DNA of 64,000 bases from the IMG/VR virus record IMGVR_UViG_2721755676_000001; one strand, given 5' to 3'. Each line of letters opens with the position of its first letter. The stretch's first letter is position 1. The DNA comes from a virus (lineage: Duplodnaviria > Heunggongvirae > Uroviricota > Caudoviricetes). The notes under the pieces are model-generated. The model worked only from the letters and a program-made list of their open reading frames with translations, searched no databases and was not told the DNA's origin. Both the position numbers and the translations under genes were made by a program. Shown here in pieces: positions 1-60,697 of the stretch.

Positions 1-162
1 AAAGTCGGCGGGCGTCTTGTAGCAGTATTGCCGGGCACTGCGCCAATACTGGACTGGATGACGATGGATAATTACGTTTATGCCAGAGGGAAGTCGTTTA
101 CCAACGAGTTTGAAGACACAGGGATCACAGTCAGCGTATACGTTTTCAAACGCGTTAAATGA
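1..162 (+). CDS. hypothetical protein, C-terminal fragment (5' end outside window)
   Basis: Frame 1 is open from window start to TGA at 160-162; no recognisable motif. Confidence 0.25.
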   Translation, partial: KVGGRLVAVLPGTAPILDWMTMDNYVYARGKSFTNEFEDTGITVSVYVFKRVK

Positions 163-182
163 TAGGTAAATGCTTACTTAAT
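160..182 (+). promoter_or_regulatory. class II palindromic promoter-proximal element (TGATAGGTAA...CTTACTTAAT)
   Basis: Shares the 10-mer TGATAGGTAA with copies near 47806 and 57273; lies about 40 nt upstream of the start at 224. Confidence 0.4.
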
Positions 183-223
183 TTATGTAAGAATGTAGTT
201 ACTAAACGATAAGAGAAAAACAC

Positions 224-928
224 ATGAGCAACCTCCAGTTAGAGCATTTTAACGTCACAGGCCATTCCGATTTTCCTTTCAAGTTTACATTGAAAGGTTA
301 TGCAGAGGATGCGGTAGGCCAGATCATTATTGATAAAGGCATCGTTAAGTTTGAGGGGAATTTTGATGAATCCGCGAAAACATTCATAGACTTCGTTGCC
401 AAACGTTGGAGCGAGCAATGGAAAGACCTGGAAAAGCGCGCTAGTGAGTTTGATCGGTTCATGGATGCAATGGATACAGCAAAAGAGGCTCTTGCTGCCG
501 GGACTCCGTTAGATCTGGAGTCACTTTTCAACGGAGAAGTGGCCTCTGCGATGTTCGCCACCATGTTCGCGGGTGAGTTCGTCCGCAGCGGTGCCAAAAA
601 CTACCTTGAGCTGGATTACAACGTCCCTGCAATTGGCGATTTCGTCGTTACCATCCAACGCAAAGAAGGTAAGACGCCAGGTGAACGCGTCGCAGAGCTT
701 GAGGCCGTTGTGGATCAGCGTAACGGAGAGTGTGACCGTTTGATCAACGAGCTTCATGCACTTCGGGAAGAAAGAATATGCGCGGGTAGCAATACACGTA
801 ATGCAGCGGATATCTACTTCCAGTTAGTTGAGGAATGCCAGATTCCACCAGGCGGCTCTCTTGTCGATTACGTCAGACATTTAATGACGGAAGTTAACTC
901 CAGCCATAAAGATGGTGAGGTGCGCTGA
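224..928 (+). CDS. hypothetical protein (234 aa)
   Basis: Long ORF with ATG start preceded by a class II element; the 15-mer GAAAAACACATGAGC at its start recurs at 55195-55209. No recognisable domain. Confidence 0.55.
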   Translation: MSNLQLEHFNVTGHSDFPFKFTLKGYAEDAVGQIIIDKGIVKFEGNFDESAKTFIDFVAKRWSEQWKDLEKRASEFDRFMDAMDTAKEALAAGTPLDLESLFNGEVASAMFATMFAGEFVRSGAKNYLELDYNVPAIGDFVVTIQRKEGKTPGERVAELEAVVDQRNGECDRLINELHALREERICAGSNTRNAADIYFQLVEECQIPPGGSLVDYVRHLMTEVNSSHKDGEVR

Positions 929-1308
929 TGTTTGGCATTGATGCACAGCGTATAGCAGCTTTTGCAAAAAGCCCTCTTGATAATCCCTTGTCTCGTAGTG
1001 AGCAAATGGCGCTGGCAAGGCTTTTTCTTCACATTCAAAAACAGGCAGACATTTTCAATAACATGCCTAATCAACCTATTCTGGATGGTCACATCCAGAT
1101 GGTCATTAACAGTCATGAGAAAGGCTGGGCTGCAATCGTCCCCTGCACAATTACATACAAGTTGGCGAAAGAGGTTCAAGAGTTTCGTAAAGCCAGTGTC
1201 GAATCGGAGTCTACCAAAGCCGCAATAAACACTCTTATTCGCATGGGGTTCACATGGAACGGTGGAGCCTACTGGCAAGCACCTCACCCCATTTTATCCG
1301 GCAATTAG
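928..1308 (+). CDS. hypothetical protein (126 aa)
   Basis: ATGA stop-start overlap with the preceding gene; weak hairpin GGCCA..TGGCC downstream (about 1341-1357). Confidence 0.5.
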   Translation: MFGIDAQRIAAFAKSPLDNPLSRSEQMALARLFLHIQKQADIFNNMPNQPILDGHIQMVINSHEKGWAAIVPCTITYKLAKEVQEFRKASVESESTKAAINTLIRMGFTWNGGAYWQAPHPILSGN

Positions 1309-1363
1309 ACGCTACAAATCCTTCGGCATGAATAAATAAAGGCCATAAGTTGTGGCCTTAAAT

Positions 1364-1416
1364 AAATTGTTTTCTATCTTTTCTTATTTGTGAAAATAAC
1401 CACAACTAGAAAACAA
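1364..1416 (+). promoter_or_regulatory. class I promoter/operator unit
   Basis: TTGTTTTCT half-site, TGtGAAAAT extended -10-like (1389-1397), AGAAAACAA half-site 10 nt downstream; same architecture and near-identical sequence to units at 4982-5046 and 8915-8955. Confidence 0.45.
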
Positions 1417-1427
1417 CGGAGTTAAGA

Positions 1428-1475
1428 ATGTCTAGTATTTCCGAAGCTCATATGTTCGCCGCTGGCGCTCGGTGA
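1428..1475 (+). other. 15-codon micro-ORF (MSSISEAHMFAAGAR) between class I promoter and terminator
   Basis: ATG with GGAG 7 nt upstream; stops after 15 codons; may be a short transcript or remnant of a truncated early gene. Confidence 0.25.
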
Positions 1476-1572
1476 TGCTGCCAACTTACTGATTTAGTGT
1501 ATGATGGTGTTTTTGAGGTGCTCCAGTGGCTTCTGTTTCTATCAGCTGTCCCTCCTGTTCAGCTACTGACGG

Positions 1573-1605
1573 GGTGGTGCGTAACGGCAAAAGCACCACC
1601 TTTTT
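1573..1605 (+). terminator. intrinsic terminator, plus-strand only (GGTGGTGC..GCACCACC + TTTTT)
   Basis: 8-bp GC-rich stem followed by T5; ends 1 nt before the mrp stop codon. Confidence 0.55.
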
Positions 1606-1606
1606 A

Positions 1607-2707
1607 TCACACTGCGCGGAATGCGATTTCGCCAGGTATTACTTCACCTTGCCAATACATTTGGGCAGCAACGCGATCTGCGAGGTCACGATAAATAGCC
1701 GTAAATTCACTATCTGGACGACTAATAACGGTTGGTGTTCCGTTATCCAGATCTTCACGAAGAGAGATATGAAGTGGCATTTGGCCTAACAACTGCGTGT
1801 TGTATTTCTCGGCCAGTTTCTGTGCGCCACCGGTGCCAAAAATTGGCTCGTGATGACCGCAGTTACTGCAAATATGCACACTCATGTTTTCAACGATACC
1901 CAGTACCGGCACTTCGACTTTTTCGAACATCACAATGCCTTTCTTCGCATCGATCAGCGCGATGTCTTGCGGCGTAGTTACCACAACCGCACCAGTTACA
2001 GGAATGTTCTGCGCCAGCGTCAATTGAATATCACCAGTGCCCGGTGGCATATCGAGAACGAGATAGTCCAGATCAGGCCACAGTGTTTCCTGCAACATCT
2101 GCATCAGCGCCTTGCTGGCCATCGGTCCACGCCACACCATTGCATTGTCGTCGGTGACCAGATAACCAATAGAGTTGGTTGCCAGGCCATGAGACATGAT
2201 AGGTGCCATGTGAGTACCGTCCGGTGAGGTTGGACGTTGGTTTTCCGCGCCCAGCATGGTTGGAATTGATGGACCATAGATATCGGCATCCAAAATACCA
2301 ACTTTCGCACCTTCAGCAGCCAACGCCAGTGCCAGGTTTACCGCCGTGGAGGATTTACCCACGCCGCCCTTGCCTGAGCTGACGGCGATAATGTTCTTAA
2401 CGCCATTAATGCCTGGTTGGTTTTTGACGCGCTTAAGCGTGGCAATGTTGTACGACAGCTTCCAGTCAATAGCCTTTGCGCCAGTGATACGGAGCAGATC
2501 ACCACTACATTGCTCTTTCAGGTCTTCAAAAGGCTTATTCCACACGAAAGGCATGATTAGTTCGACATGCAGTGTGTCATCCATCAACGCAACATGGTGT
2601 AACGCTTTAAGCGTAGTCAGGTTGTGTTTCAGGGTTGGGTGCTGAAAATTAGCCAGCGTACCGGCTACCATTGCTCTCAGGGCATCCGGCGATTTGGACT
2701 CGCTCAT
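1607..2707 (-). CDS. apbC: iron-sulfur cluster carrier ATPase Mrp/ApbC
   Basis: 366 aa; P-loop [11 protein letters not shown]-terminal CSNCGHH; near-identical to enterobacterial Mrp as recalled. Confidence 0.95.
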
Positions 2708-2864
2708 CCCGTCTCCTTTATTTTAATTTGCGCAATTGTCGCCTTGTAGTGTACTCCAGCTACGACATTTAATCATTTATGAGAAATGCTGTTATCACAT
2801 GGCAGACATAAGGCCATTTTGTTACTATCAAGCCCCTTTTCACTACAAAGAAGTAATGCCTACT

Positions 2865-4898
2865 ATGACCCAAGTCGCGAAGAAAATTCTGGTGACGTGC
2901 GCGCTGCCGTACGCTAACGGCTCAATCCACCTCGGCCATATGCTGGAGCACATCCAGGCTGATGTCTGGGTTCGTTACCAGCGAATGCGCGGCCACGAGG
3001 TTAATTTCATCTGTGCCGACGATGCCCACGGTACGCCAATCATGCTGAAAGCACAGCAGCTTGGTATCACACCGGAACAGATGATTGGCGAAATGAGTCA
3101 GGAACATCAGACTGATTTCGCAGGCTTTAACATCAGCTATGACAACTATCACTCGACGCACAGCGAAGAGAACCGTCAGTTGTCCGAGCTTATCTATACT
3201 CGCCTGAAAGAGAACGGTTTTATTAAAAACCGCACCATCTCTCAGCTGTACGACCCGGAAAAAGGCATGTTCCTGCCGGACCGTTTTGTAAAAGGCACAT
3301 GCCCGAAATGTAAAGCGCCGGATCAATACGGCGATAACTGTGAAGTCTGCGGCGCGACATACAGCCCGACGGAACTGATCGAGCCGAAATCAGTGGTTTC
3401 TGGCGCTACACCGGTAATGCGTGATTCCGAACACTTCTTCTTTGATCTGCCTTCTTTCAGCGAAATGTTGCAGGCATGGACCCGCAGCGGTGCGTTGCAG
3501 GAGCAGGTGGCAAACAAAATGCAGGAGTGGTTTGAATCTGGCCTGCAACAGTGGGATATCTCCCGTGACGCACCTTACTTCGGTTTTGAAATTCCGAACG
3601 CACCGGGCAAATACTTCTACGTCTGGCTGGACGCGCCGATTGGCTACATGGGTTCCTTCAAGAATCTGTGCGACAAACGCGGCGACACTACCAGCTTCGA
3701 CGAATACTGGAAGAAAGACTCCACCGCCGAGCTGTACCACTTCATCGGCAAAGATATCGTTTACTTCCACAGCCTGTTCTGGCCTGCCATGCTGGAAGGC
3801 AGCAACTTCCGCAAGCCGACCAACCTGTTTGTTCACGGCTATGTGACGGTGAACGGCGCGAAGATGTCCAAGTCTCGCGGCACCTTTATTAAAGCCAGCA
3901 CCTGGCTGAATCATTTTGACGCCGACAGCCTGCGTTACTACTACACTGCGAAACTCTCTTCGCGCATTGATGATATCGATCTCAACCTGGAAGATTTCGT
4001 TCAGCGTGTGAATGCCGATATCGTTAACAAAGTGGTTAACCTGGCCTCCCGTAATGCAGGCTTTATCAACAAGCGTTTTGACGGCGTGCTGGCAAGCGAA
4101 CTGGCTGACCCGCAACTGTACAAAACCTTTACTGATGCCGCTGAAGTGATTGGCGAAGCATGGGAAAGCCGCGAATTTGGCAAAGCTATCCGTGAAATCA
4201 TGGCACTGGCTGACCTGGCTAACCGCTATGTTGATGAACAGGCTCCGTGGGTGGTGGCAAAGCAGGAAGGACGCGATGCCGATCTGCAGGCGATTTGCTC
4301 TATGGGCATTAACCTGTTCCGCGTGCTGATGACGTACCTGAAACCGGTACTGCCGAAACTGACTGAACGTGCAGAAGCATTCCTGAATACAGAACTGACC
4401 TGGGATGGTATCCAGCAACCGCTGCTGGGCCATAAAGTGAATCCGTTCAAGGCACTGTATAACCGCATCGATATGAAGCAGGTTGAAGCACTGGTGGAAG
4501 CATCCAAAGAAGAAGTGAAAGCCACAGCCGCACCGGTAACTGGCCCACTGGCTGACGACCCGATTCAGGAAACTATCACCTTTGACGACTTCGCCAAAGT
4601 TGACCTGCGCGTGGCGCTGATTGAAAACGCAGAGTTTGTAGAAGGTTCTGACAAACTGCTTCGCCTGACGCTGGATCTCGGTGGTGAAAAGCGTAATGTC
4701 TTCTCAGGCATCCGTTCCGCTTATCCAGATCCACAGGCACTGATTGGTCGTCACACCATTATGGTGGCTAACCTGGCACCACGTAAAATGCGCTTCGGTA
4801 TCTCTGAAGGCATGGTGATGGCTGCTGGCCCCGGCGGGAAAGATATCTTCCTGTTAAGCCCGGATGCTGGTGCTAAACCTGGCCACCAGGTTAAGTAA
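2865..4898 (+). CDS. metG: methionyl-tRNA synthetase
   Basis: 677 aa from the ATG at 2865 ([29 protein letters not shown] motif, KMSKS, zinc knuckle CPKC..C..C, C-terminal tRNA-binding domain); divergent from mrp as in E. coli-type chromosomes. Confidence 0.95.
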
Positions 4899-4920
4899 TT
4901 AAACAACCTCTCTTCGCAAT

Positions 4921-4946
4921 GCCCGGCAACACGCCGGGCATTTTCA
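4921..4946 (+). terminator. intrinsic terminator downstream of metG
   Basis: GCCCGGC aacac GCCGGGC followed by ATTTTCAT. Confidence 0.7.
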
Positions 4947-4981
4947 TATAGACACAACCCCTTCTGACTTTAACAAACTCT

Positions 4982-5046
4982 AAAACAATTTGTTTTCTAC
5001 CTTTTGTTGATTGAGATAATAAGTCATATAAGAAAACAAATTGTTT
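4982..5046 (+). promoter_or_regulatory. class I promoter/operator unit (two palindromes flanking an extended -10)
   Basis: AAAACAATTTGTTTT (4982-4996), tTGaGATAAT (5011-5020), AGAAAACAAATTGTTT (5031-5046) directly before SD AGGAG. Confidence 0.5.
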
Positions 5047-5051
5047 AGGAG

Positions 5052-5300
5052 ATGAAGATGTTTGGAACAGCAAAAGAAATCATCGAGAAACTGAAAAACT
5101 ATCCAGAAGACGAACCCTTACTCATGGTTATGTGGCACAAAGAAGATATTGCTGAAGTAAGGACAGATCTCACTGATGAACAATGCGTACAGGTGATGCA
5201 AAAAATCAGACAATGCCATAACGCTGATGTCGGCGTTAATTGGGAGGTTATATCAACTACGGCGAATGAGTTGTTTCCGAACGGGGTGGTAAAATGCTGA
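5052..5300 (+). CDS. hypothetical small protein (82 aa; start may be the ATG at 5058)
   Basis: ORF immediately downstream of a class I unit and SD. Confidence 0.5.
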   Translation: MKMFGTAKEIIEKLKNYPEDEPLLMVMWHKEDIAEVRTDLTDEQCVQVMQKIRQCHNADVGVNWEVISTTANELFPNGVVKC

Positions 5301-5594: not shown

Positions 5595-5993
5595 ATGAAA
5601 TATGCACCATTGGCACTAATATTTTTTGTGCTTTCTGCTAATGCCACGCCAGTTGAAGAGCCTAACACTATCGTGTACCCACGATGCATGAAAATAGATC
5701 CGGAAACACACAAGCAATTACCTGGTTACAATATTGTTATGGATATAGGGAATAAATTTAAAATCGTTTCCCCAAATGGGAATTCGGTGATATCCATCTC
5801 GCTTGCCCAAAGTGAAAAAGATAGGAACATGTTCGACGCCTCAGTCGGCGATGTTTACTTCTCTCGTTACCATGTTCAACCTGATGGGAACTTTCTATAC
5901 TCAGCCTGGAGTGAAAAGGCGAAAGTTACAGTGCTGTGTAATGGTAAAAGCGGTGAGCGGCATTACGTTGACCCTATTCATTTCGAGAACTGA
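5595..5993 (+). CDS. hypothetical secreted protein (132 aa)
   Basis: N-terminal signal-peptide-like segment MKYAPLALIFFVLSANA; SD GAGGGA upstream. Confidence 0.55.
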   Translation: MKYAPLALIFFVLSANATPVEEPNTIVYPRCMKIDPETHKQLPGYNIVMDIGNKFKIVSPNGNSVISISLAQSEKDRNMFDASVGDVYFSRYHVQPDGNFLYSAWSEKAKVTVLCNGKSGERHYVDPIHFEN

Positions 5994-6122
5994 CTACACA
6001 AGTAAACAAATCAATCAGTTGATAATGGCGGTCACAATTTGATTCTTTTCTATAAGAATCCGTTGATCGCCACTACTCTTCTTCCATACCCGCAATCACA
6101 TCCTTAAATATCAATAAGTTAT

Positions 6123-6150
6123 AGTTGTTTATACAATCAAGAAAACAACT
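6123..6150 (+). promoter_or_regulatory. class I-type unit with split palindrome around a TACAAT -10-like hexamer
   Basis: AGTTGTTT-aTACAAT-ca-AGAAAACAACT. Confidence 0.35.
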
Positions 6151-6860
6151 GAATAACAGATCAACGAAACATCAACGCTTTCACCCGATTTGGTCTAAAA
6201 AATTGACGTTTTCACACATCACTGCTTATACCCGTAACTCTACGCAGCAGACAGCGCCACAGCGTCCAATTTTCACCACAGACGACCCAACACACTACCA
6301 ACAAAAACACACGCTCAAAATCGCTCCCGTTGCGTTACACAACCATATAAACAACTTATTTTCAGGCATAACAAAACAACTAAATAACACAAATGCCATT
6401 TCCAAAAACAACCAACCTCTTTATGGCAGGCTACCGAAAAGACCCACCTCTTCTCCCCAGGCTACCGGACAACCAACCTAACTTTCACAGGCAATCCGAA
6501 AACATTCATACGCGCGATACCCACGACACGCCATTCCCCAAACAGCGAAGAACACCAGAATCACTGAAACCCCAACGAAGCCTGTAACCGCAAGGTTTCT
6601 CTCAATCCCAAAAGACACGAAACACAACAATCACGGGAAATGCCATTACCCAATACACGAATAACTACAAAAGCCCTTCACGCACTCCAGACAAACAACT
6701 CAAACACAATAACGAAAGGAATCGCCCACCTGCCATTACTCCATACACGGAGAAGAACAATCACCAAAACGACGAGAACACCCCATAGAAGAACCACCGC
6801 AAAACGAACGAAACCACATACACCGACAGAGAGAACAACACACCCAATTCACCAACAGAA
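6150..6860. other. A+C-rich (G/T-depleted) non-coding tract with degenerate internal repeats
   Basis: A+C about 75% on the plus strand (45% A, 32% C in 6601-6660); repeated TGCCATTnCnCnATACACG (6642, 6731); ORFs here are low-complexity artefacts. Confidence 0.6.
6416..6510. repeat. three tandem ~31-bp repeats with core CAGGCTACCG
   Basis: Cores at about 6427, 6458, 6488; homologous array at 9549-9650. Confidence 0.6.
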
Positions 6861-6976
6861 ATAGTTGCCGTATAGAACATTCTGGAAGGAGTGAGCATTA
6901 ACGCCTATAGAGAGGTTGAGACAGATAAAACACAACATGTATAGCGAAGAAGCCAGGTATGTATAAGTGGGGAGGG

Positions 6977-7000
6977 AAGGAGGGGTGTCGCCTCCTTTTT
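6977..7000 (+). terminator. possible intrinsic terminator (AAGGAGG..CCTCCTT + TTT)
   Basis: 7-bp stem with 7-nt loop and short T-run; would end a transcript from the 6130 promoter. Confidence 0.35.
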
Positions 7001-7063
7001 CGTATTTATTCAACTCCTGATTTTATCCCCCGTAACACCCCTACGGTCAGCCTTCGGTCCATA

Positions 7064-7198
7064 CAGGGAAAAGGTTGCATCCCGCTACAGAAACGGCTGG
7101 GTTGCCTTCGGGGAACGGCTGGAGGTTTTCAGGGAAACGGTCGAGTTGCCTGTGTGGATTTCGGGAAAAGGCTCGATGCCGGTTCAGGAACGGCGGCG
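7064..7198. repeat. six direct repeats of GGGAAACGGCT-like core, 21-32 bp period (iteron-like)
   Basis: Copies at 7064, 7088, 7109, 7130, 7162, 7185; related array at 10247-10326. Confidence 0.65.
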
Positions 7199-7507
7199 TA
7201 CCGGCATAGCGAGAGGGAGAGTTGCGGCTACCCACCTGTAATGTGCGGGAAGAAGAGAGGCGCTCACGTAGGCGGACTTACTTACCGCTGGATTCCCTCT
7301 GAATGCCCAGCTACAGCGTAATTGTGCCAGACAGCCAACGGGTCACAATCGATTTCAGTAGGTTTTTGGGGAGAGGATTACTCTGCCACCAGCCACTTTC
7401 GGCCACTAAATCAGAATAATGTAAAAAGTGTACTCGGTACTGAACCTGAAAACTCACTGCCAAAACCACATTCACCGGAATAAAATCCTTTTTCGCCTGT
7501 GCGTTAT

Positions 7508-7542
7508 TGCGATAATAACACCATCAAGAAAACATGTTGTTT
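7508..7542 (+). promoter_or_regulatory. class I promoter/operator unit
   Basis: tTGcGATAAT (7507-7516), 10 nt spacer, AGAAAACATGTTGTTT (7527-7542), then SD AAGGA. Confidence 0.45.
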
Positions 7543-7554
7543 AAGGATTGCTTT

Positions 7555-7884
7555 ATGTTTACAAATATCGACATCAACCAAATCAAGAAATTAACTCAAA
7601 AAGAGTTTGATCAGTTTTATGAGTTAGAAGGTTGGTCTTCCACTCTGATCAATTCAAGATGGGTGCTGGAACTGATGACTCGTGATGACGCACCTGCTTT
7701 GATGATCAGCGACATGGGTGAAGATGCTGACTTTATGGATATGAGCGAATTTTGTGTGGACACATACAACCGCAGCCAGAAGTACTACTTCACATGCGAT
7801 GGCGAAAATGACGTGATTTCTAAGGTCTATCTTCACCTCGTCCAGCATTGGGACGTTCAGGAGTTTCTTGAAGTATTCGAGTAA
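7555..7884 (+). CDS. hypothetical acidic protein (109 aa)
   Basis: ATG at 7555 downstream of operator and SD; the listed 7534 start lies inside the operator. Confidence 0.5.
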   Translation: MFTNIDINQIKKLTQKEFDQFYELEGWSSTLINSRWVLELMTRDDAPALMISDMGEDADFMDMSEFCVDTYNRSQKYYFTCDGENDVISKVYLHLVQHWDVQEFLEVFE

Positions 7885-7990
7885 CCCCAACCAAAGCCAG
7901 CATTGCTGGCTTAATTTCTCTATAGCCGCAGGGAAGAACCTGCATATCGCTCATGCGCCTGATCAATATGCTTTGTAGCCGTTTTCTTAC

Positions 7991-8026
7991 TGGTATTATT
8001 TACGCCATTGAGAAAACAAGTTGTTT
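7991..8026 (+). promoter_or_regulatory. class I promoter/operator unit
   Basis: TGgTATTAT -10-like, then AGAAAACAAGTTGTTT (8011-8026), SD GGAG. Confidence 0.4.
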
Positions 8027-8037
8027 ACGGAGTTGTG

Positions 8038-8349
8038 ATGAAAAAATCATTGGTTCTTGGTCTGGACAAAGACCAGAAGAGAAAAGAGAAGCCTGCGCTG
8101 GTTGCTCAATTAACTTTGCTGGACATCGTTGCCAATGGGACCTCTATTCGTCTGTTCCGTGAAACAGCGGTGTCTTTCGATAAAAACACCTTTACTCGTT
8201 ATGTAATGAATGTTCGTCGCCAGCGTGGAAAAGGCTGGGTGGCATTTCAAAGAATGTGGCCGGAACATCAGCTCGAACTGGCTTTGATGGAAGTTAACCG
8301 CGTGGCCCAGCAAGAGATTCAGAGAGCATCAGTGATGGCAATAGCCTGA
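8038..8349 (+). CDS. hypothetical protein (103 aa)
   Basis: ATG at 8038 after operator and SD. Confidence 0.5.
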   Translation: MKKSLVLGLDKDQKRKEKPALVAQLTLLDIVANGTSIRLFRETAVSFDKNTFTRYVMNVRRQRGKGWVAFQRMWPEHQLELALMEVNRVAQQEIQRASVMAIA

Positions 8350-8383
8350 TAATGTGCAAGTGGTAATTAGTCGACCGTACGAC

Positions 8384-8413
8384 AGCCCCGCCATCCTTAC
8401 GGGGCTTTTTTTG
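8384..8413 (+). terminator. intrinsic terminator
   Basis: AGCCCCG..CGGGGCT followed by T7. Confidence 0.7.
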
Positions 8414-8476
8414 TATTGTAAGTACATACTTACGATCATAGAATAGAAAAATAACCAATACACTACGGAGAGTGAA

Positions 8477-8914: not shown

Positions 8915-8955
8915 CGATAACAATTTGTTTTCTGCCTTATCTGATTTGTGAAAAT
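8915..8955 (+). promoter_or_regulatory. class I promoter/operator unit
   Basis: AACAATTTGTTTTCT plus TGtGAAAAT; near-identical to the unit at 1364-1397. Confidence 0.45.
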
Positions 8956-10731: not shown

Positions 10732-10803
10732 AACGCGCCATCAATGGCGCGTTATTGTGGAAGTATTGGAAACGAAAAAAGCGCCCATAGTGGGCGCTCG
10801 ATT
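10732..10803 (-). terminator. tandem intrinsic terminators for the minus-strand operon
   Basis: Minus-strand hairpins AGCGCCCACTATGGGCGCT + T7 (10780-10798) and AACGCGCCATTGATGGCGCGTT + T6 (10732-10753). Confidence 0.6.
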
Positions 10804-11034
10804 TTATTTATGTAAACTGATTTCAAATCCCATTTCTACAAACGCTTTTAACATTAAAAATATATCAGCGTCGTTCACGTCTACTTTTTTTCGCTCCTGG
10901 TCGCTCAATAAGTCAATTTTGCGCGTCGTTTCATCTATAAGCTCGACTGCGCGCCCAGCGTAACCAGCGATCCCAGCGATGCGACTAACATAATATTCAT
11001 TATGGACGTTAACGCCAGCGATAAGAACAAACAT
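10804..11034 (-). CDS. hypothetical protein (76 aa), AT-rich
   Basis: ORF ending directly at the terminator; low GC relative to flanks. Confidence 0.45.
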   Translation of the reverse strand: MFVLIAGVNVHNEYYVSRIAGIAGYAGRAVELIDETTRKIDLLSDQERKKVDVNDADIFLMLKAFVEMGFEISLHK

Positions 11035-11258: not shown

Positions 11259-11275
11259 TTTCAAAGCTCCTTTAA

Positions 11276-11294
11276 AGCGCCCATAGTGGGCGCT
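11276..11294. repeat. hairpin repeat AGCGCCCA-TAG-TGGGCGCT (second copy of the 10780-10798 hairpin)
   Basis: Identical 19-nt hairpin between two minus-strand genes. Confidence 0.5.
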
Positions 11295-11306
11295 TGATTC
11301 CATTAA

Positions 11307-11957
11307 TTACGCTTTGAAAGCATCAGCCAAATAATTGTAGAAATCATTCTTGATAAAGCGATATTGCTGTGTACCAGCTTTTGCGCTTCCCATTCCTTTG
11401 ACTTTCTCAACAAGTCCAAGACGTTCGCAAAGATTGATCAACTGGTTGGCTTGAGTATAGCCAGCGTCCAATTTAATTTCACACGCTTTTTTAGCTTCAT
11501 TCATTAAATCGAAAACAGCGCCATTGGTGAACGTGTCGATCTCGTCGTTAATCATATCGATTAAAGCGAATACACGAGATCCAGACATATCAGCGATGGA
11601 ATAAACGCATTTGCCAGATTTAATTGATTTAACCAGATAAACCAGTTTTTCCAGAGAATAACTATTAGTCATTGCATCACGGAAAAATACTTCTGGCGCT
11701 TGTTTGCTTGCTTTAATCGCATAGTAGAAAACAGAGCATAATTTTTCGTCTTCTACAGCGTTTACGACGTTGTTGATGAAGTAAGCAAGTTTAGTGGTAG
11801 CAGCTTGCATATTTGCTTTGTCTGCTTTGGTGTGCGTACCATTTTTATAATGTTCATTATATGTTTGAGTTGCCAGATCTGCTTTTTCGCGCAGTTCATC
11901 GGATACAATGGAAGCAGCTTCAACGATGGATTTTTTAGAAATGATAATGTTAGCCAT
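11307..11957 (-). CDS. hypothetical protein (216 aa), AT-rich
   Basis: Long ORF; C-terminal region (LINLCERLGLVEKV) is winged-helix-like; no firm family call. Confidence 0.5.
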   Translation of the reverse strand: MANIIISKKSIVEAASIVSDELREKADLATQTYNEHYKNGTHTKADKANMQAATTKLAYFINNVVNAVEDEKLCSVFYYAIKASKQAPEVFFRDAMTNSYSLEKLVYLVKSIKSGKCVYSIADMSGSRVFALIDMINDEIDTFTNGAVFDLMNEAKKACEIKLDAGYTQANQLINLCERLGLVEKVKGMGSAKAGTQQYRFIKNDFYNYLADAFKA

Positions 11958-18627: not shown

Positions 18628-19514
18628 CGGACATCATCATTAAACGCTACCGCCCTGAAGAGTTCCCGCGTCATCTGGACTTTCTGGAGCGAATGACTGT
18701 TACAAAGGGAACTGTAGAGGACTGGCACGCTCTTAAGTCGCTTCACTACAAAACAGACGGCAAACCTTTCGCGCCAACTTACTATCGCTGCGAACTTGAT
18801 GACCGTCTGGTGGGCGTCGTGGTTATGGCTTACCCGAAACTACTGCTGGCACCTCGCCACCGCATGTTTCCTAAGTTGAAACCAACCACTAATACCACCG
18901 TGGCTAACCAGTACTGGGGTCGGTACGTGAATAACAACTTTGCGGTGATCAGTCGCTCAGTTGTGGATACTCAGTATCGTGGCGTAGGCGTCTCTTATCG
19001 AATGATTAACCTGGTTAGCAGGATGCATGACCGGCCAATCATTGAGATCCAGTCCTCGATGAGCAAATACAATCCCTTCGCCATGAAAGCAGGGTTTAAG
19101 TTCATCCGCCCTGAGCGACCGAAGAGCTATGAAAGTGCACTGCGTGTATTCCAGCGCCATTTCCGTTCCGACCCGGGTGATAACGAGGCGATCGTCAAAG
19201 AGTTGTTCGCAATGAGCGAGTCTCGTCGTCGCCGTGCACTGCGTGATCTGGTGGCGGACTACCACAAGAACAGTTCCCTGGCAAAAGCTGGGCGGAATCG
19301 TGGCACGACGATTCAGGACATTGCCGACAGTCTGGTGGACGAGGCCAGCATTGTGAAGCTGCTCAAGGACATTCACAATCTGAGCTTTACGTCTCCGTTG
19401 TATGGTGTGTATCGAAACCCTGACTTTGGTCGTCGACTGCCTGACACGCTGCCACTGCTGGCATTCGACAAACAACCTTTGGATAAACCGTTAGAAATTG
19501 CTTTGCCGGCATAA
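18624..19514 (+). CDS. GNAT-like acetyltransferase-fold protein (296 aa)
   Basis: QYRGVG fits GNAT motif A (Q/R-x-x-G-x-G/A); start overlaps the upstream stop. Domain call is inference. Confidence 0.45.
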   Translation: MTDIIIKRYRPEEFPRHLDFLERMTVTKGTVEDWHALKSLHYKTDGKPFAPTYYRCELDDRLVGVVVMAYPKLLLAPRHRMFPKLKPTTNTTVANQYWGRYVNNNFAVISRSVVDTQYRGVGVSYRMINLVSRMHDRPIIEIQSSMSKYNPFAMKAGFKFIRPERPKSYESALRVFQRHFRSDPGDNEAIVKELFAMSESRRRRALRDLVADYHKNSSLAKAGRNRGTTIQDIADSLVDEASIVKLLKDIHNLSFTSPLYGVYRNPDFGRRLPDTLPLLAFDKQPLDKPLEIALPA

Positions 19515-19523
19515 GGATTTGCC

Positions 19524-19790
19524 ATGACGTTAACCGATAAACAAAAGGACATCATCAAAACGCTCAATCTCGGTTATGAGCGAGGTCATCTACTTGACCT
19601 GGACGAATTGCTTGAAGTTTTGCCGTACAAGACAACCAAGCAAAGTATCCAGTTCTCAATTCGCGCTCTGATAAAAAAGGGGCTGGTGGAGAAAGGGCAT
19701 ACGCGCCAACGCAGTGACAATCGCTATCACCGCCGAACTCTTGGGTTAACCACTTTAGGTCGAGCCAAAGCGAAGTTACTGGTGATGTAA
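19524..19790 (+). CDS. small winged-helix DNA-binding protein (88 aa)
   Basis: Helix-turn-wing pattern (IRALIKKGLVEK), basic C-terminus. Confidence 0.4.
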   Translation: MTLTDKQKDIIKTLNLGYERGHLLDLDELLEVLPYKTTKQSIQFSIRALIKKGLVEKGHTRQRSDNRYHRRTLGLTTLGRAKAKLLVM

Positions 19791-19814
19791 TCGGTCTGGG
19801 AGCTTATTTAAAGA

Positions 19815-19869
19815 CCTGCTTCTGTATATATAAATAATAAGTAACTTATTAAATATATACGGAAGCAGG
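19815..19869. repeat. 55-bp near-perfect palindrome (copy A)
   Basis: CCTGCTTCTGTATATATAAATAATAAGT|AACTTATTAAATATATACGGAAGCAGG; second copy at 52829-52881; outer inverted repeat GGTCTGG/CCAGACC. Confidence 0.7.
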
Positions 19870-19905
19870 CTTCGTAAGACATGCCAGACCTAATTAAACA
19901 CCCCA

Positions 19906-19947
19906 GAAAACAAGTTGGTTAGCAGATGCAGTAAACAAGTTGTTTTA
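19906..19947 (+). promoter_or_regulatory. two class I operator palindromes upstream of terS
   Basis: AGAAAACAAGTTGGTT and TAAACAAGTTGTTTTA, followed by hairpin AGAGCGC..GCGCTCT and SD. Confidence 0.45.
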
Positions 19948-19985
19948 GAGCGCATGGACGCGCTCTGTGTGTTTTAGAGGGATCT

Positions 19986-20618
19986 ATGACGGTCGAAAAA
20001 GACGAGGTAAAAACTCGCCTGACACCAGCGGAGTGGGCCGAAGCTGAAGCCAAATGGACGTCAGGCGAATATACACTCTCAAAGCTGGAGGAAGAGTACG
20101 GCATTCGTCGTGAAACACTCTCCAGACATTTCAAAAAGCGAGGATTAGAGAAAGGCGCGGACTCTGTTGGGAAGATGGTTCGTGAGTCTCTTAAATCTGA
20201 CGCAGAGCTTCGCGCTAAAGCCCGTGCGGAAAAGATAGAAGAACGTCGTACACGTTATGACGGCTGGGCGTATGCGTTGGGGCAGATGGTGATGGTCGAA
20301 GTCACTACGGCCAAACGTGAGGGTAAGCCTTTAGGGGCGATTGAGGATTCTCTCAAGAGCTTACAGAGAGCCAGTAATACCCTTGCAAAATGCTTTGAAG
20401 TTTCGTCCAAAGCATTGGGCATGGATCATGCGGAAAATGACGAGGAAGAAATTCCGAACCTGGTATTTGGTGAGCTTACGCCTTCCCAGGTGGCGAAATT
20501 ACGTCAGGAAGACGACGAGCCTGAAATCATCGATGACGAATTGCTTGAGACGTTGGAAGAAGAAGCTCTAAGCGAATTTGATGCGACAGATGATGGAAGT
20601 GAAGGGGAGGACGAATAA
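19986..20618 (+). CDS. terminase small subunit (putative)
   Basis: 210 aa, helical N-terminus, very acidic C-terminus, directly upstream of and overlapping the large-subunit gene. Confidence 0.6.
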   Translation: MTVEKDEVKTRLTPAEWAEAEAKWTSGEYTLSKLEEEYGIRRETLSRHFKKRGLEKGADSVGKMVRESLKSDAELRAKARAEKIEERRTRYDGWAYALGQMVMVEVTTAKREGKPLGAIEDSLKSLQRASNTLAKCFEVSSKALGMDHAENDEEEIPNLVFGELTPSQVAKLRQEDDEPEIIDDELLETLEEEALSEFDATDDGSEGEDE

Positions 20619-21874
20619 TGGCAATCCCGTCCTCGCTCAGTCTTGTGCAACTGCATTCTGGACAGATGAAAGTCTTCCAGTCTCCGCATCGATTTAAAGT
20701 TGTTTGTGCTGGTCGACGCTGGGGAAAATCCCGGTTGTCGATCTCCACTATTATTCGTGCGGCGGCAAAGGAAAAAAAGCAAAGGGTCTGGTATGTCGCT
20801 CCTACTTACCAGATGGCTCGCCAGATTTTGTGGGACGATCTACAGGAAGTTCTGCCTCGTAAGTGGGTTAGGAAAAAGAACGACACCACGATGACAATCG
20901 TGTTGAAGAACGGTTCGGAGATCGCCCTCAAAGGTGCTGATAAGCCTGACACTCTGCGCGGCGTAGCGTTGCATTTTGTAGTGCTTGATGAATTTCAGGA
21001 TATGAAGGCTGACACCTGGTACAAGGTGTTACGACCTACTCTTTCATCGACACGCGGCGGTGCACTGATCATTGGTACGCCAAAAGGCTTCTCGGAATTT
21101 CACAAACTGTGGACTATAGGCCAGAACGTAGAGCTGCAAAGAAAGGGACAGTGGAAGAGCTGGCAGTTTGTAACTGCCGATTCTCCGTTTGTGCCTACGG
21201 CGGAAATTGAAGCTGCTAAGAACGATATGGACCCGAAATCGTTCGCTCAGGAGTACCTGGCGAGCTTTGAGAACATGTCCGGGCGCGTTTACTACCCGTT
21301 CGATCGTAACGTGCATGTAAAACTGCTTCAGTTCAACCCTCGGTTGCCTATATGGGTAGGGCAGGACTTCAACATTGACCCGATGTCTTCCGTAATTTTG
21401 CAACCTCAGCCAAATGGTGAGCTATGGGCAATTGATGAATTGGTGCTCTTTTCCTCTAACACGGCAGAAGTTTGTGATGAGCTTGAGAGACGCTTCTGGC
21501 GCTGGAAATCACAGGTAACGGTATTTCCAGATCCGGCAGGTGCTTATCGCCAACATGCTCGTGGGGAGTCTGACGTAGACATATTCAAAGAGAAGGGATT
21601 CTTACGTGTCGATTATTCGAAAAAGCACCCGCCAATTGCGGATCGTGTTAATGCTGTTAACCGAATGCTGATGTCCGCATCTGGAGATATCCGGCTGTAT
21701 ATCGATCCGAAGTGCAAGCATTTGATTGATTCACTGGAAAAAGTCATCTACAAGCCTGGAACACGAGATATGGATAAGACAGGTGGCATTGAGCATAGTG
21801 CAGACGCATTGGGCTATCCAGTACATCGTAGGTATCCAGTCAAAAACCGTGTTATTCTTGGTGGTTCTCGATAG
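20618..21874 (+). CDS. terminase large subunit
   Basis: Walker A CAGRRWGKS, Walker B VVLDEFQD, C-terminal nuclease-like acidic residues. Confidence 0.85.
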   Translation: MAIPSSLSLVQLHSGQMKVFQSPHRFKVVCAGRRWGKSRLSISTIIRAAAKEKKQRVWYVAPTYQMARQILWDDLQEVLPRKWVRKKNDTTMTIVLKNGSEIALKGADKPDTLRGVALHFVVLDEFQDMKADTWYKVLRPTLSSTRGGALIIGTPKGFSEFHKLWTIGQNVELQRKGQWKSWQFVTADSPFVPTAEIEAAKNDMDPKSFAQEYLASFENMSGRVYYPFDRNVHVKLLQFNPRLPIWVGQDFNIDPMSSVILQPQPNGELWAIDELVLFSSNTAEVCDELERRFWRWKSQVTVFPDPAGAYRQHARGESDVDIFKEKGFLRVDYSKKHPPIADRVNAVNRMLMSASGDIRLYIDPKCKHLIDSLEKVIYKPGTRDMDKTGGIEHSADALGYPVHRRYPVKNRVILGGSR

Positions 21875-21900
21875 GTAAGTAATTATCTAAGGTTATTCAA

Positions 21901-25358: not shown

Positions 25359-26279
25359 ATGCCAGAACAAAAGATGAAGATTACGGAAGAGGCATTTTCG
25401 GATTTTACGGGGCATATGTGCCGCGCCGGATTTACCAATTCTATCTCCGATGAACCTTTAACCGAGCGGCAACAAAGTCAGCTATCTGCTTGTTTGCAGG
25501 CGGTTCCCTTCTCCCAATCCGTAAACATAACTCCGGCTTCACCATCAGTTTTGGTTGGGAAAACTGTTCAACTTAGTGCAGGTATTAGTATGGGTAAGAG
25601 TGCCAGTTCATTCACCTGGAAGTCAGCCAATGATCAAATTGCAACCGTTAACGGCACTGGATTAGTAACTGGCGTAGCCCCAGGCAAAGTAAAAATTACT
25701 GCAACTGATCAGGAAACCCAGCTTTCCGCTTCAGTGGAAGTCACCGTAAATCCGGTAGCCGTTCAATCCGTAACGGTAACGCCAGAATCAACGTCTGTTG
25801 AGAAAGGGAAATCAGTCAGTCTGAAAGCGAATGTTCAGCCGTCAAATGCGACGAATAAGGCTGTTACCTGGTCTTCCAAAAATGAAGATAAGGCAACGGT
25901 AGACCAGAGCGGGAACGTAACTGGTGTAGAAGTTGGCACTGCGACGATTGAGATCGTTTCCCAAGATGGTAGCAAAAAGGCAACTGCAACGGTGGAAGTA
26001 ACTGCGCCTGTTGTGGCTGTTACAGGCGTCGAAATCGACCCAAATAGCACAACCGTTGAGGCAAACAAAACTGTTCAGCTGACCGCAAATGTCGAGCCGG
26101 CAGGAGCCACAAATAAAACCGTTACTTGGGAATCCAAAAATACCGAGTTTGCAACGGTGGACAGCGAAACCGGTGTTGTAACTGGTGTTGCGGCTGGCAC
26201 TGCCACAATCGAGGTTACTACCCAAGATGGTAGCCACAAAGCGACAGCGACCGTAGAGGTCACTGCCGCACAGGAATAA
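25359..26279 (+). CDS. Ig-like (Big_2-type) domain protein, probable head decoration
   Basis: Three repeats of the pattern VTV.P.S..V..GK.V.L.A.V.P..ATNK.VTW.S...ATVD..G.VTGV..G.ATI. Confidence 0.65.
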   Translation: MPEQKMKITEEAFSDFTGHMCRAGFTNSISDEPLTERQQSQLSACLQAVPFSQSVNITPASPSVLVGKTVQLSAGISMGKSASSFTWKSANDQIATVNGTGLVTGVAPGKVKITATDQETQLSASVEVTVNPVAVQSVTVTPESTSVEKGKSVSLKANVQPSNATNKAVTWSSKNEDKATVDQSGNVTGVEVGTATIEIVSQDGSKKATATVEVTAPVVAVTGVEIDPNSTTVEANKTVQLTANVEPAGATNKTVTWESKNTEFATVDSETGVVTGVAAGTATIEVTTQDGSHKATATVEVTAAQE

Positions 26280-52828: not shown

Positions 52829-52881
52829 CCTGCTTCTGTATATAAATAATAAGTAACTTATTAAATATATACGGAAGCAGG
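52829..52881. repeat. 53-bp near-perfect palindrome (copy B)
   Basis: Same sequence as 19815-19869 minus 2 bp; lies in the divergent region before the replication module. Confidence 0.7.
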
Positions 52882-52988
52882 TCTTTTAAAAGACACCACC
52901 AGAACAACTCCCTTCCGTTTCCACTTCCAAAAACTGCCACCAGTCGCTATCATCCGCTCATTGTGATAAGTAAGTAACTACCAACTAG

Positions 52989-55122: not shown

Positions 55123-55203
55123 AAAATAAGCGTGGAGAACACCTCCACGCTTGATTCATTGGTGAAACAACTTTTCTTTTGCCAAACCACAAAAGAAAAA
55201 CAC

Positions 55204-60601: not shown

Positions 60602-60606
60602 ATTTA

Positions 60607-60693: not shown

Positions 60694-60697
60694 AATT

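Follow-up and report, generated by a model that had tools for sequence, protein, structure and literature searches.

The window, by which we mean the whole 64,000-nucleotide stretch of Caudoviricetes DNA analysed here, contains two genes of host type, apbC (mrp) and metG, with phage-type regulatory motifs on both sides. This raises the question of whether they are the host's own genes beside viral DNA or part of the viral element. A sequence-only reading had offered both answers: either the element had taken up an mrp-metG segment from a chromosome, or related prophage DNA sits on both sides of the chromosomal genes. The first is right in substance, as over 200 related plasmids carry the module at an identical position, although that reading did not see the ancient age of the capture, the status of the genes as extra paralogues or the IS1-linked deletion beside them. 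We consider it very probable that the window represents a pSLy3-type phage-plasmid with an ancient apbC-metG cargo, whose metG undergoes conversion with the host gene, whose left flank was shaped by IS1 and a deletion, and whose cargo would have the function proposed below.

Replicon and cargo module

The window belongs to the SSU5/pHCM2-like phage-plasmids of E. coli. Allowing for rotation it corresponds to pSLy3, a circular (~114-kb) E. coli phage-plasmid of 114,472 bp, with 100% identity over window positions 1-1650, the module and the terminase region (pSLy3 record position + 13906 = window position). pSLy3 is annotated with terminase, portal, capsid, tape measure and tail fibres, and also with ParB-like proteins, a DnaB-like helicase, primase and ligase; a siphovirus structural module is combined with partition and replication genes homologous to those of SSU5 on a circular, extrachromosomal replicon of the ~100-115 kb class that is never chromosomal. 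A search for the terminase-portal region in 5,426 complete E. coli genomes gave 421 places in 259 records, all plasmid, and 0 places on chromosomes. SSU5, pLF82 (= Cyrano), pECOH89 and PhiR41_1 are replicons of this type with their genes in the same order (early genes, parB-like genes, terminase, portal, capsid, tail, DnaB-like helicase, primase, ligase, tRNA cluster). DNA identity to the window in the early region is 97-98% for Cyrano and PhiR41_1 and 74-88%, in patches, for SSU5. Virions have been shown for Cyrano (PMC9928086); PhiR41_1 was deposited as a phage, with K-12 as its host.

The apbC-metG module is present in 208 PLSDB plasmids and at 224 plasmid places in the 5,426 complete genomes, in both sets at 95-100% identity, and occurs on plasmids of E. 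albertii, E. marmotae and Shigella too. The sequenced phages Cyrano and PhiR41_1 carry it at the same location, whereas SSU5 has no humD-apbC-metG at the corresponding position. It is kept in roughly 85-95% of related plasmids amid a highly variable surrounding region. Every host also has its own apbC-metG on the chromosome, between yehE and a DUF4132 (molR) gene, with an identity of no more than 90.4% to the plasmid module; apbC and metG in the window are extra paralogous copies and not the host's housekeeping genes. These observations bear directly on the idea that the host's chromosomal pair lies between two related prophages or within an integrated element. Element-type motifs do stand on both sides of the genes, but over 200 complete records show the replicon as a circular plasmid, its terminase and portal are never chromosomal, and the chromosomal pair has other neighbours and a different sequence. 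The idea has next to no probability, and flanking prophages in particular are refuted by the plasmid-only terminase-portal region and the distinct chromosomal copies.

Similarity to enterobacterial chromosomes ends at both stop codons (1607 and 4898). Positions 1607-4946 make up a cargo module complete in itself: apbC and metG, a divergent promoter region shared by the two, and a terminator of their own. Early-region genes lie on either side of it, and a repressor-type class I promoter follows closely downstream. Both apbC (1607..2707, minus strand, 366 aa) and metG (2865..4898, plus strand, 677 aa) are intact. The estimate of about 3.4 kb of host-type DNA was close to the 3,292 bp found (1607-4898), but missed an IS1 remnant that intervenes on the left. 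The divergent promoter region (2708..2864) has 47-53% identity to E. coli and is closest to Citrobacter (71-79%); Escherichia-like sequence returns at about 2810-2830, and a conserved extended -10, TGTTACTAT, at 2820-2828 marks the predicted metG promoter. The terminator that had been placed at 4921-4946 proved to be an intrinsic terminator on the plus strand (4918..4946), with a hairpin at 4918-4942 (-19.1 kcal/mol, z -5.2) and a T-run at 4943-4946; it is conserved in the phage-plasmids and has no homology to the chromosomal metG terminator. SSU5 homology restarts at a class I promoter unit (4980..5047, plus strand; perfect palindromes at 4982-4996 and 5033-5047, extended -10 TGAGATAAT at 5012-5020), ahead of the first element gene rightward, a DUF1380-family homologue of SSU5_104 (5058..5300, plus strand). 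SSU5 likewise has class I units upstream of its HD-domain and DUF1380 genes.

With its own (predicted) promoter region and terminator, its position between two element genes and a GC content of 50-52% (apbC 50.5%, metG 52.3%) against 46% for the element, the module resembles phage morons, the autonomously transcribed cargo of phages; the Cyrano copy of apbC is also transcribed above the prophage background. It differs from them in that the cargo is a core housekeeping pair duplicating chromosomal functions instead of a gene for virulence, exclusion or defence, and in the weak transcription of its metG half in the lysogen.

IS1 remnant and deletion on the left

The signals left of the module belong to motif families of the element. 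The class II motif proposed at 160-182 ahead of ORF 224 was recovered as TAGGTAAATGCTTACTTA at 163..180 (plus strand), 44 nt upstream of that ORF. Its consensus, TARGTA-N6-TACYTA, has 11 sites against 0.32 expected, all on the plus strand and all intergenic or at gene ends. The ORF itself (224..928, plus strand) is a phage-plasmid early gene, annotated 'Ead-Ea22 protein' in Cyrano, with 74% DNA identity to the SSU5_096 region and no match in Pfam or NCBIfam; a further early gene, 'Eaa-like' in Cyrano, occupies 928..1308 (plus strand) and has a terminator-like hairpin on its 3' side (1339..1359, -12.1 kcal/mol, plus strand and listed on the minus strand also). The class I unit reported at 1364-1416 was likewise confirmed and spans 1357..1416 (plus strand), with an operator-like palindrome at 1360-1373, an extended -10 (TGTGAAAAT, 1389-1397) and a second operator half (TAGAAAACAA, 1407-1416). 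It is conserved in SSU5 (88% identity), upstream of the HD-domain gene there, and belongs to a 60-nt repeat family (D2) with members at 1357, 4980, 7476 and 8915. The palindromic core of class I, AAAACAA-N-TTGTTT, gives 20 strand-matches at ~12 distinct sites, against 0.24 expected, and neither class of motif occurs within 1471-4950. Two short identities had been put forward as additional evidence, a 12-mer common to this unit and the one at 8915 (ATTTGTGAAAAT, 1386-1397 and 8944-8955) and a 15-mer (GAAAAACACATGAGC, 215-229 and 55195-55209). Both are exact, but their weight was overstated, as they are compatible with chance: positions 1-1470 and the rest of the element have 11 runs of exact 12-mers in common against a random mean of 6.9, and a shared 15-mer arises in 8% of random trials. 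The motif families are the significant part.

Between this element DNA and the 3' end of apbC stands a 127-nt left-end remnant of IS1 (1471..1597, plus strand), 9 nt from the apbC stop codon. It consists of the left inverted repeat (GGTGATGCTGCCAACTTACTGAT) and the start of insA, is 100% identical to the IS1 of P1 and is annotated in pSLy3 as partial IS1 transposase; the complete, two-ended element of 768 bp is absent, and the remnant is non-functional. Next to it lies the stub of an HD-domain phosphohydrolase gene (1428..1475, plus strand), defined by alignment with the intact gene in pAVS0968-B, with 15 codons followed by a TGA that the IS1 end creates. Alignment with pAVS0968-B further shows that 10471 to about 16324, ~5.85 kb, is missing. 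The deletion junction (1593..1597) is the microhomology GCACC, which IS1 shares with the 3' arm of the former humD terminator. Across it runs a composite hairpin (1573..1605, plus strand; GGUGGUGC...GCACCACC followed by UUUUU) with its 5' arm from IS1 and its 3' arm and T-run from the former humD terminator. At 31 of 35 related loci humD, not IS1, adjoins apbC, with an identical module boundary, and most relatives have humD and about 5 kb more of early genes between the left-hand signals and apbC. The pSLy3 lineage, which has the IS1 remnant and lacks the 5.85 kb of early genes, comprises eight complete records and in these respects also differs from SSU5.

The proximity of element signals to apbC on the left is specific to the pSLy3 lineage and stems from an IS1-linked 5.85-kb deletion. 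The HD-domain gene was first interrupted at codon 15 by IS1. Deletion at the GCACC microhomology subsequently removed most of IS1 and the 5.85 kb of early genes including humD, and joined a hairpin arm of IS1 to the arm left from the humD terminator; a terminator-like structure thereby still shields apbC from the upstream class I promoter. As in IS1 deletion formation, the exact left inverted repeat and first 127 nt abut the disrupted target gene; here, however, the insertion sequence is truncated and the junction is a 5-nt microhomology within IS1, which makes the event illegitimate recombination and not a transposase-made adjacent deletion. The short distance between the IS1 end and the apbC stop codon could also suggest that IS1 recently moved host apbC-metG into the plasmid, as a composite transposon or cointegrate, with the remnant marking the capture. 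Yet humD borders the same module boundary in most related loci, the IS1 junction lies inside a pre-existing humD terminator arm, and the module is 10-18% diverged from every sampled chromosome. Such a role for IS1 is most improbable; the capture appears, from these comparisons, to be ancient and not the work of the adjacent IS1.

Discordant histories of apbC and metG

By sequence, the apbC product is an ApbC/Mrp iron-sulfur cluster carrier (Mrp/NBP35 ParA-type ATPase). It scores 759.3 bits, over its full length, against the NCBIfam equivalog NF008669 (cut-off 348), matches Pfam PF10609 (E = 2.4e-102) and contains the deviant Walker A motif GKGGVGKS and the CxxC cluster-binding motif CSNC; its 'MinD' annotation in Cyrano is a misnomer. 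The metG product scores 1019.8 bits against the MetRS equivalog NF001100 (NCBIfam; cut-off 587, profile positions 3-676 of 676), matches the Pfam families tRNA-synt_1g, Anticodon_3 and tRNA_bind, and displays HLGH (HIGH-type), KMSKS and the zinc-knuckle cysteines CPKC...CEVC. Its 98.8% amino-acid identity to K-12-type E. coli MetRS (94.3% at the nucleotide level) suggests that it would charge tRNA-Met; the 8 differences from K-12 MetRS are mostly states found also in Citrobacter or Salmonella, and none is a plasmid-specific active-site change. For apbC, identity to E. coli is 95% for amino acids and 82% for nucleotides. Neither gene has an internal stop in 22 alleles, and dN/dS among plasmid alleles is 0.005-0.013 (~0.01) for both. 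The ApbC protein is the same in 16 of the 22 alleles, even where their DNA differs by 2-4% (dN/dS no higher than 0.013). Both genes are under strong purifying selection, although the low dN/dS of metG could be partly imported from the chromosome via conversion.

Synonymous divergence from E. coli is 1.4-1.5 for plasmid apbC and 0.24-0.33 for plasmid metG; between E. coli and Escherichia sp. E1V33 chromosomes, it is 0.58 for apbC and 0.28 for metG (order reversed, ~2x). Between PhiR41_1 and pEA11_2 the difference is 0.18% in apbC and 4.1% in metG. Draft assembly might have created chimeras that look like mosaics in the IMG/VR contigs L094 and L116, so the tests were run again with complete replicons alone. 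In eight of these, fixed and polymorphic sites numbered 133 and 88 in apbC and 17 and 248 in metG (Fisher p = 6e-40), compared with 149 and 74 in apbC and 13 and 243 in metG in 20 alleles (p = 1e-50). In neighbour-joining trees plasmid apbC is monophyletic (100%) and falls outside E. coli and E1V33 (100%), whereas plasmid metG is monophyletic in just 8% of bootstraps and its alleles are intermixed with chromosomal Escherichia alleles (about 94%); the chromosome comparisons were made without E. albertii, E. fergusonii and E. marmotae, which bears on the branching point of apbC and on the donors of metG tracts. Plasmid apbC thus appears as a long-branched sister of Escherichia apbC, and the long branch could mean faster evolution on the plasmid instead of great age. 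We infer a single capture of the pair from the Escherichia stem or an unsampled sister lineage, predating the diversification of present-day Escherichia, after which the module would have been trimmed down to both stop codons.

Sequence comparison shows that the two genes have had separate fates. The 18% nucleotide divergence of apbC is too great for recombination with the host copy, and apbC evolves as an allele peculiar to the plasmids, held by strong purifying selection. The more conserved metG has long identical runs with the host gene, and conversion between it and the chromosomal metG recurs, both into the plasmid and out of it, which makes plasmid metG alleles mosaics among chromosomal Escherichia alleles. 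Towards the chromosome, the evidence is a tract in the metG of M160133, known from one deposited assembly, that corresponds to window positions 3758..4160 (plus strand; bounding sites 3749 and 4181). Over 403-431 bp, 15 of 15 consecutive informative sites (of 127) have the plasmid state; the gene differs from the ST648 clade allele at exactly these 15 contiguous sites and is ST648-type on both flanks. Over the tract there is full identity to the allele of the resident phage-plasmid pM160133_p3, a plasmid near-identical to that of the window, and M160133 alone (1 of 5,423) has a chromosome at least 99% identical to window positions 3700-4075. Such a contiguous switch between unchanged flanks is direct evidence of plasmid-chromosome conversion. 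Towards the plasmid, runs of chromosomal-type sites are present in the metG of PhiR41_1 and other complete plasmids.

Concerted evolution by gene conversion is familiar from tufA/tufB of enterobacteria. The metG paralogues are similar in their contiguous tracts of a few hundred bp to ~1 kb, their many shared polymorphisms and their few fixed differences. They differ in that the partners are on separate replicons, one of them an infectious phage-plasmid, which allows alleles to move between strains and species, and in that metG alone participates while the neighbouring apbC escaped. As a feature the module is host-derived, moron-like cargo of an ordinary kind with an evolutionary twist that is unreported. 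We tentatively suggest, as a possibility short of an even chance, that plasmid metG is an infectious, recombining allele of an essential gene, brought by every infection next to a host gene to which it is about 94% identical, with conversion writing both ways. If true, phage-plasmids would shuttle housekeeping-gene sequence between E. coli lineages and between Escherichia species and could provide homology at which rare integration or mobilisation of the chromosome is anchored, and the repeated capture of translation genes at one hotspot (metG, and der in some relatives) would reflect selection for Met-tRNA charging and ribosome assembly during a shutdown imposed by the host or a competitor.

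Expression and possible benefit

In RNA-seq of the Cyrano lysogen, the ApbC homologue CYRAN_99 reaches about 92 fpkm, 9x background, and is listed as a moron (PMC9928086, Table 1/S1 Table) under the name 'septum site-determining protein'; the MetRS gene CYRAN_100 reaches about 16 fpkm in LF82, ~1.6x local background, and plasmid copy number is 5.5 (PMC9928086). According to these published data, the lysogen expresses apbC autonomously but metG only weakly. The module would supply extra ApbC and MetRS from a plasmid at ~5 copies per cell, and spare copies of the two genes presumably bring a benefit.

The module might instead be a neutral passenger that persists through its small size and the repair of metG by conversion. 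The low metG transcription, the documented conversion from the chromosome and a plasmid MetRS of unaltered active site would all suit this. However, apbC is out of reach of such repair because it is just 82% identical to the host copy, and its protein is nonetheless conserved; it is also expressed as a moron, the module is largely retained despite variable surroundings, and conversion cannot reverse deletions. A neutral passenger is therefore unlikely, at roughly one chance in eight. Somewhat less probable still is that the spare MetRS is a protective device, conferring inhibitor resistance or buffering against toxins or defences that hit Met-tRNA charging or initiator tRNA. Complete aminoacyl-tRNA synthetases do occur on viruses and plasmids besides the host's (giant-virus MetRS, plasmid ileS2/mupA, metS2 of S. 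pneumoniae), and mobile second copies such as mupA and metS2 give inhibitor resistance; a KacT-type (GNAT-type) acetyltransferase toxin is annotated on Cyrano, and three relatives acquired der, a second translation gene, at this very position. Unlike those systems, plasmid MetRS has no distinctive substitutions and is kept similar to the host enzyme by ongoing recombination instead of being resistant or virus-adapted; such continuing exchange is hard to square with a functionally distinct enzyme. Its near-identity to the host's (98.8%) and its weak expression in the lysogen also count against a protective device. Returning to a benefit from spare copies, the module may be grouped with the element's other self-sufficiency genes. 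These include tRNAs, DHFR, RNase HI, ligase and glutaredoxin, with der in some relatives.

Replicon and cargo

The DNA on either side of apbC and metG belongs to a phage-plasmid. Three complete E. coli plasmids of 113–114 kb match window 1-1650 at 100%, and about 150 further plasmids match window 1-1470. Among phages, window 1-1650 comes closest to the phage-plasmids Cyrano, PhiR41_1 and CMS-2020a (97.7–98.1%), and a patch of Salmonella phage SSU5 matches it at 84%. Over the terminase-portal region (window 19512-22369) the identity is 100% with positions 5606-8463 of the record of pSLy3, a 114,472-bp E. coli plasmid, so that window position equals pSLy3 record position plus 13906; the window is pSLy3 read across the arbitrary origin of its record. 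We ruled out pM160133_p3, a plasmid of E. coli strain M160133, as the source, since it departs from the window after about 15 kb, falling from complete identity to ~97%, and carries an extra IS3, whereas pSLy3 fits. The IS3-family element of pM160133_p3 (L088, 32600-33813) splits the tape-measure gene, which is intact in the window, and this plasmid is probably defective as a phage for that reason.

In 5,426 complete E. coli genomes the terminase-portal region was found in 259 records, all of them plasmids, and at no chromosomal place. The element is therefore an SSU5/pHCM2-like phage-plasmid and not an integrated prophage, and the flanks on both sides of apbC-metG are phage-plasmid DNA. The sequence-only reading had offered two explanations for element-type signals on both sides of these genes; that of a chromosomal segment captured into the element is the right one, and that of prophage DNA on either side of chromosomal genes fails for an element without a chromosomal place.

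The captured module comprises apbC (1607-2707, − strand), metG (2865-4898, + strand) and its own terminator (4918-4946), which bears no relation to the terminator of chromosomal metG. Homology to SSU5, which lacks the module, resumes at a class I promoter unit (4980-5047) followed by a DUF1380 gene. The 3.46-kb module stretch occurs in 208 PLSDB plasmids from E. coli, E. albertii, E. marmotae and Shigella, nearly all non-mobilizable and 100–128 kb in size, and complete E. coli genomes hold 224 plasmid places for it at ~95–100% identity. All 5,426 E. coli genomes also carry a chromosomal apbC-metG copy, at most 90.4% identical to the plasmid module, and the similarity to the chromosome stops precisely at both stop codons. 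These genes are conserved cargo and not the host's own, and the module, shown to be structurally autonomous, fits the moron concept. Both genes are likewise shown to be intact and constrained: ApbC and MetRS give full-length equivalog matches with catalytic motifs present, and dN/dS among plasmid alleles is ~0.01 for apbC and metG alike. A specialised plasmid MetRS was considered and rejected, as its eight amino-acid differences from the K-12 type are conservative and most recur in Citrobacter, Salmonella or Escherichia sp. E1V33.

Left junction and regulatory motifs

Left of the module, two early genes (224-928 and 928-1308) are followed by a hairpin (1339-1359), a class I promoter (1357-1416) and an HD-domain gene that starts at 1428 and runs for 14 codons before an IS1 left end interrupts it; 127 nt (1471-1597) are all that remains of this IS1. 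The remnant meets plasmid DNA at a GCACC microhomology, 9 nt past the stop codon of apbC, where relatives have the 3' arm of the humD terminator, AGGCGGTGCAATGCACCGCCTTTTT. The fusion of IS1 and humD terminator recreates a composite hairpin with a T-run (1573-1605), at which class I transcription would probably still end ahead of antisense entry into apbC. Relative to pAVS0968-B, a related plasmid with an intact HD-domain gene, 5.85 kb are missing, comprising the remainder of the HD gene, DUF551, toprim and DNA-binding protein genes, humD and hypotheticals. As humD adjoins apbC in 31 of 35 related loci and the IS1 junction is confined to the lineage of the window (eight complete plasmids and one IMG/VR contig), IS1 marks a deletion and not the capture. 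In three related phage-plasmids, E. marmotae NZ_CP072690.1 (L085 6280-7752), NZ_CP146383.1 and NZ_CP148383.1, humD is replaced beside apbC by der, which encodes the essential ribosome-assembly GTPase EngA. The plasmid-borne der is 91.5% identical to that of the E. coli chromosome and is a second translation-gene capture at the same hotspot.

The 12-mer, the 15-mer and the terminator on which the sequence-only reading relied are all present. As evidence the shared words are weak alone, being near chance (exact 12-mers common to 1-1470 and the rest of the element have a mean of 6.9 hits in random sequence, and a common 15-mer arises in 8% of random trials), but the motif families behind them are strongly non-random. 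The 60-nt class I unit, an extended -10 (TGnGAWAAT) between two palindromes AAAACAA-N-TTGTTTT, lies at window 1357, 4980, 7476 and 8915, with partial copies at 9668, 50798 and 53736. The palindrome core has 20 strand-matches at ~12 distinct sites (1360, 4982, 5033, 6349, 7529, 8013, 8917, 9681, 19907, 19932, 50821 and 53749) vs. 0.24 expected, often paired around the extended -10. From this arrangement, class I units look like early promoters under one repressor, with the palindromes probably serving as operators for the repressor of the element. A generic sigma-70-like promoter scan returned fewer sites than in shuffles and is uninformative on these units. The class II motif TARGTA-N6-TACYTA occurs 11 times (163, 16581, 21872, 23379, 28870, 42282, 47807, 52967, 56401, 59760 and 62247) vs. 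0.32 expected, always on the + strand and either intergenic or at a gene end. In the early and the structural regions alike, the sites precede + strand genes or the tRNA cluster by 1–430 nt, examples being a parB-like gene, the portal gene and grxA; class II could be the element's consensus for promoters or for the binding of a regulator. Neither motif occurs in window 1471-4950.

Discordant histories of apbC and metG

The two genes of the module differ sharply in their distance from the host copies. Nucleotide identity between plasmid and E. coli chromosome is 82% for apbC and 94.3% for metG, with dS of 1.4–1.5 and 0.24–0.33 and GC3 of 0.52 vs. 0.62 and 0.61 vs. 0.63, respectively. Among plasmid alleles, dS is 0.09–0.18 for apbC and 0.11–0.36 for metG; between the chromosomes of E. 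coli and Escherichia sp. E1V33 the order of divergence is reversed, the dS of apbC (0.58) being about twice that of metG (0.28). Ratios of fixed to polymorphic sites were 133/88 for apbC and 17/248 for metG in eight complete replicons (Fisher p = 6e-40), and 149/74 and 13/243 in 20 distinct alleles (p = 1e-50); IMG/VR scaffold 2740892421_000017 was excluded from these statistics. In neighbor-joining trees of apbC, the plasmid clade is monophyletic (100%) and sister to E. coli plus E1V33 at 90%, and these two exclude it in 100% of bootstraps. In trees of metG, plasmid alleles are interleaved with both chromosomes, and plasmid monophyly receives 8%. The remaining fixed differences of metG concentrate in its first third and last 75 nt.

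The region between the genes is 71–79% identical to Citrobacter vs. 47–53% to E. coli and switches to Escherichia-like sequence at ~2810-2830, immediately ahead of the ribosome-binding site of metG. The Citrobacter donor hinted at by this region was rejected, since in the apbC tree the plasmid clade is instead sister to Escherichia. A donor scan of species-representative genomes gave at least 80 loci, those listed including none from E. albertii, E. fergusonii, E. marmotae or the E. coli representative, and the chromosome nearest to plasmid apbC among the matches listed reaches 82.4%. One species representative, CP170191.1 (L005, 'Enterobacter hormaechei strain B56 chromosome'), has 0 differences in apbC and metG from E. 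coli strain WG5 and looks mislabelled or contaminated. These comparisons are most simply read as a single old capture, after which only metG underwent concerted evolution.

A case of exchange is found in strain M160133. A 376-nt probe (window 3700-4075) retrieved 22 records at ≥99% identity, namely 21 plasmids and the M160133 chromosome, whose resident plasmid pM160133_p3 carries exactly the metG allele of the window. The closest relatives of this chromosome are ST648-type strains, at least 14 of which share one allele, at 99.4%. Chromosomal metG in the deposited M160133 assembly differs from the ST648 allele at 15 sites, all 15 with the plasmid base and consecutive among 127 informative plasmid/ST648 sites (gene 894-1296, window 3758-4160); the bounding informative sites, gene 885 and 1317, have the chromosomal state. 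All changes in the tract are synonymous, because both chromosomes share one protein accession. The plasmid state occurs in plasmids of unrelated hosts and the chromosomal state is clade-wide in ST648, which argues that the tract went from plasmid to chromosome. The reverse direction is seen in PhiR41_1, which differs from E. albertii pEA11_2 by 0.18% in apbC and 4.1% in metG and whose metG contains long runs of E. coli-chromosome-type sites; several other plasmid metG alleles have shorter runs of this type. Recombination of metG with the host copy is thereby shown, as read from deposited alleles.

Assembly artefacts may account for mosaics in draft IMG/VR contigs. Short-read assemblies break at metG, which has a plasmid and a chromosomal paralogue, and many draft contigs of these phage-plasmids stop within the gene (L092, L098, L105, L107, L112, L118-L120 and L123). 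The 13-kb scaffold 2740892421_000017 (L116 and L121) contains phage-plasmid DNA with plasmid-type apbC and a hybrid metG that is followed by 224 nt from the chromosome; beyond a 10-nt gap come chromosomal yehD-yehE-apbC and a 5' portion of metG. The scaffold represents either integration via recombination at metG or a scaffolding chimera.

Possible benefit, significance and further features

The phage-plasmid Cyrano (pLF82) of strain LF82 is maintained at ~5.5 copies per cell and makes virions (PMC9928086). Its ApbC homologue, annotated as 'septum site-determining protein', is a listed moron expressed at 9× the local background (~92 fpkm), compared with ~16 fpkm for the MetRS gene and ~148 fpkm for humD (PMC9928086). 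That the module is a neutral passenger is weakened mainly by this expression of apbC and by the conservation of its product: apbC lies out of the reach of conversion, yet the protein is perfectly conserved, being identical across most plasmid alleles. An own supply of ApbC and MetRS would benefit the plasmid, in line with its other self-sufficiency genes. Within the window this set comprises the four tRNA genes and those for ligase, helicase, primase and glutaredoxin; DHFR and RNase HI lie upstream in pSLy3, and the three relatives described above add der. A link of metG to a tRNA-Met was ruled out, as the tRNA cluster of the element (60527-61084) encodes Asn-GTT, Tyr-GTA, Thr-TGT and Ser-TGA and no tRNA-Met. 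Just outside the window, pSLy3 record 91175-91651 (L001 1-85) encodes a dihydrofolate reductase annotated as trimethoprim-resistant DfrA51, and the pSLy3 early region further holds RNase HI and a 3'-5' exonuclease, likewise host-like metabolic genes.

Viruses and mobile elements are known to carry additional aminoacyl-tRNA synthetase genes, and paralogues are known to evolve in concert through conversion. The element belongs to the SSU5-like phage-plasmids, and hundreds of GenBank records already annotate the two genes. We found no description of apbC-metG on this lineage in the searchable literature on SSU5-like phage-plasmids, the words metG, methionine, apbC and synthetase being absent from the phage-plasmid surveys searched; neither the discordant histories nor the plasmid-chromosome exchange of metG tracts was found described in the searchable literature. 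The evolutionary dynamic of the module is modestly surprising. It provides a clean natural case of co-captured genes with opposite fates, one drifting beyond recombination range and the other in concerted evolution with the host, and suggests that a temperate phage-plasmid can write sequence into an essential chromosomal gene without transducing flanking DNA. In about 4% of complete E. coli genomes, a phage-plasmid adds a second metG and apbC; besides breaking short-read assemblies within metG, the second copy can confound allele calls, 'core gene' counts in pan-genomes and the inference of recombination at this locus. The question raised is why a phage-plasmid pays for MetRS and an Fe-S carrier, plus der in some relatives.

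Further features were noted elsewhere in the element. The second copy of the shared 15-mer (55195-55209) holds an in-frame ATG 66 nt upstream of the annotated start of the DNA primase gene (55270), whose ORF may begin earlier than annotated. A 60-nt intergenic repeat (19827-19886 and 52839-52898, 87% identity) contains a class II-like palindrome, and the GC-rich hairpin AAAGCGCCCATAGTGGGCGCT occurs twice (10778-10811 and 11274-11307). Internal repeats are present in the tail-fibre gene (44432-46094) and in a gene with Ig-like domains (25917-26266).
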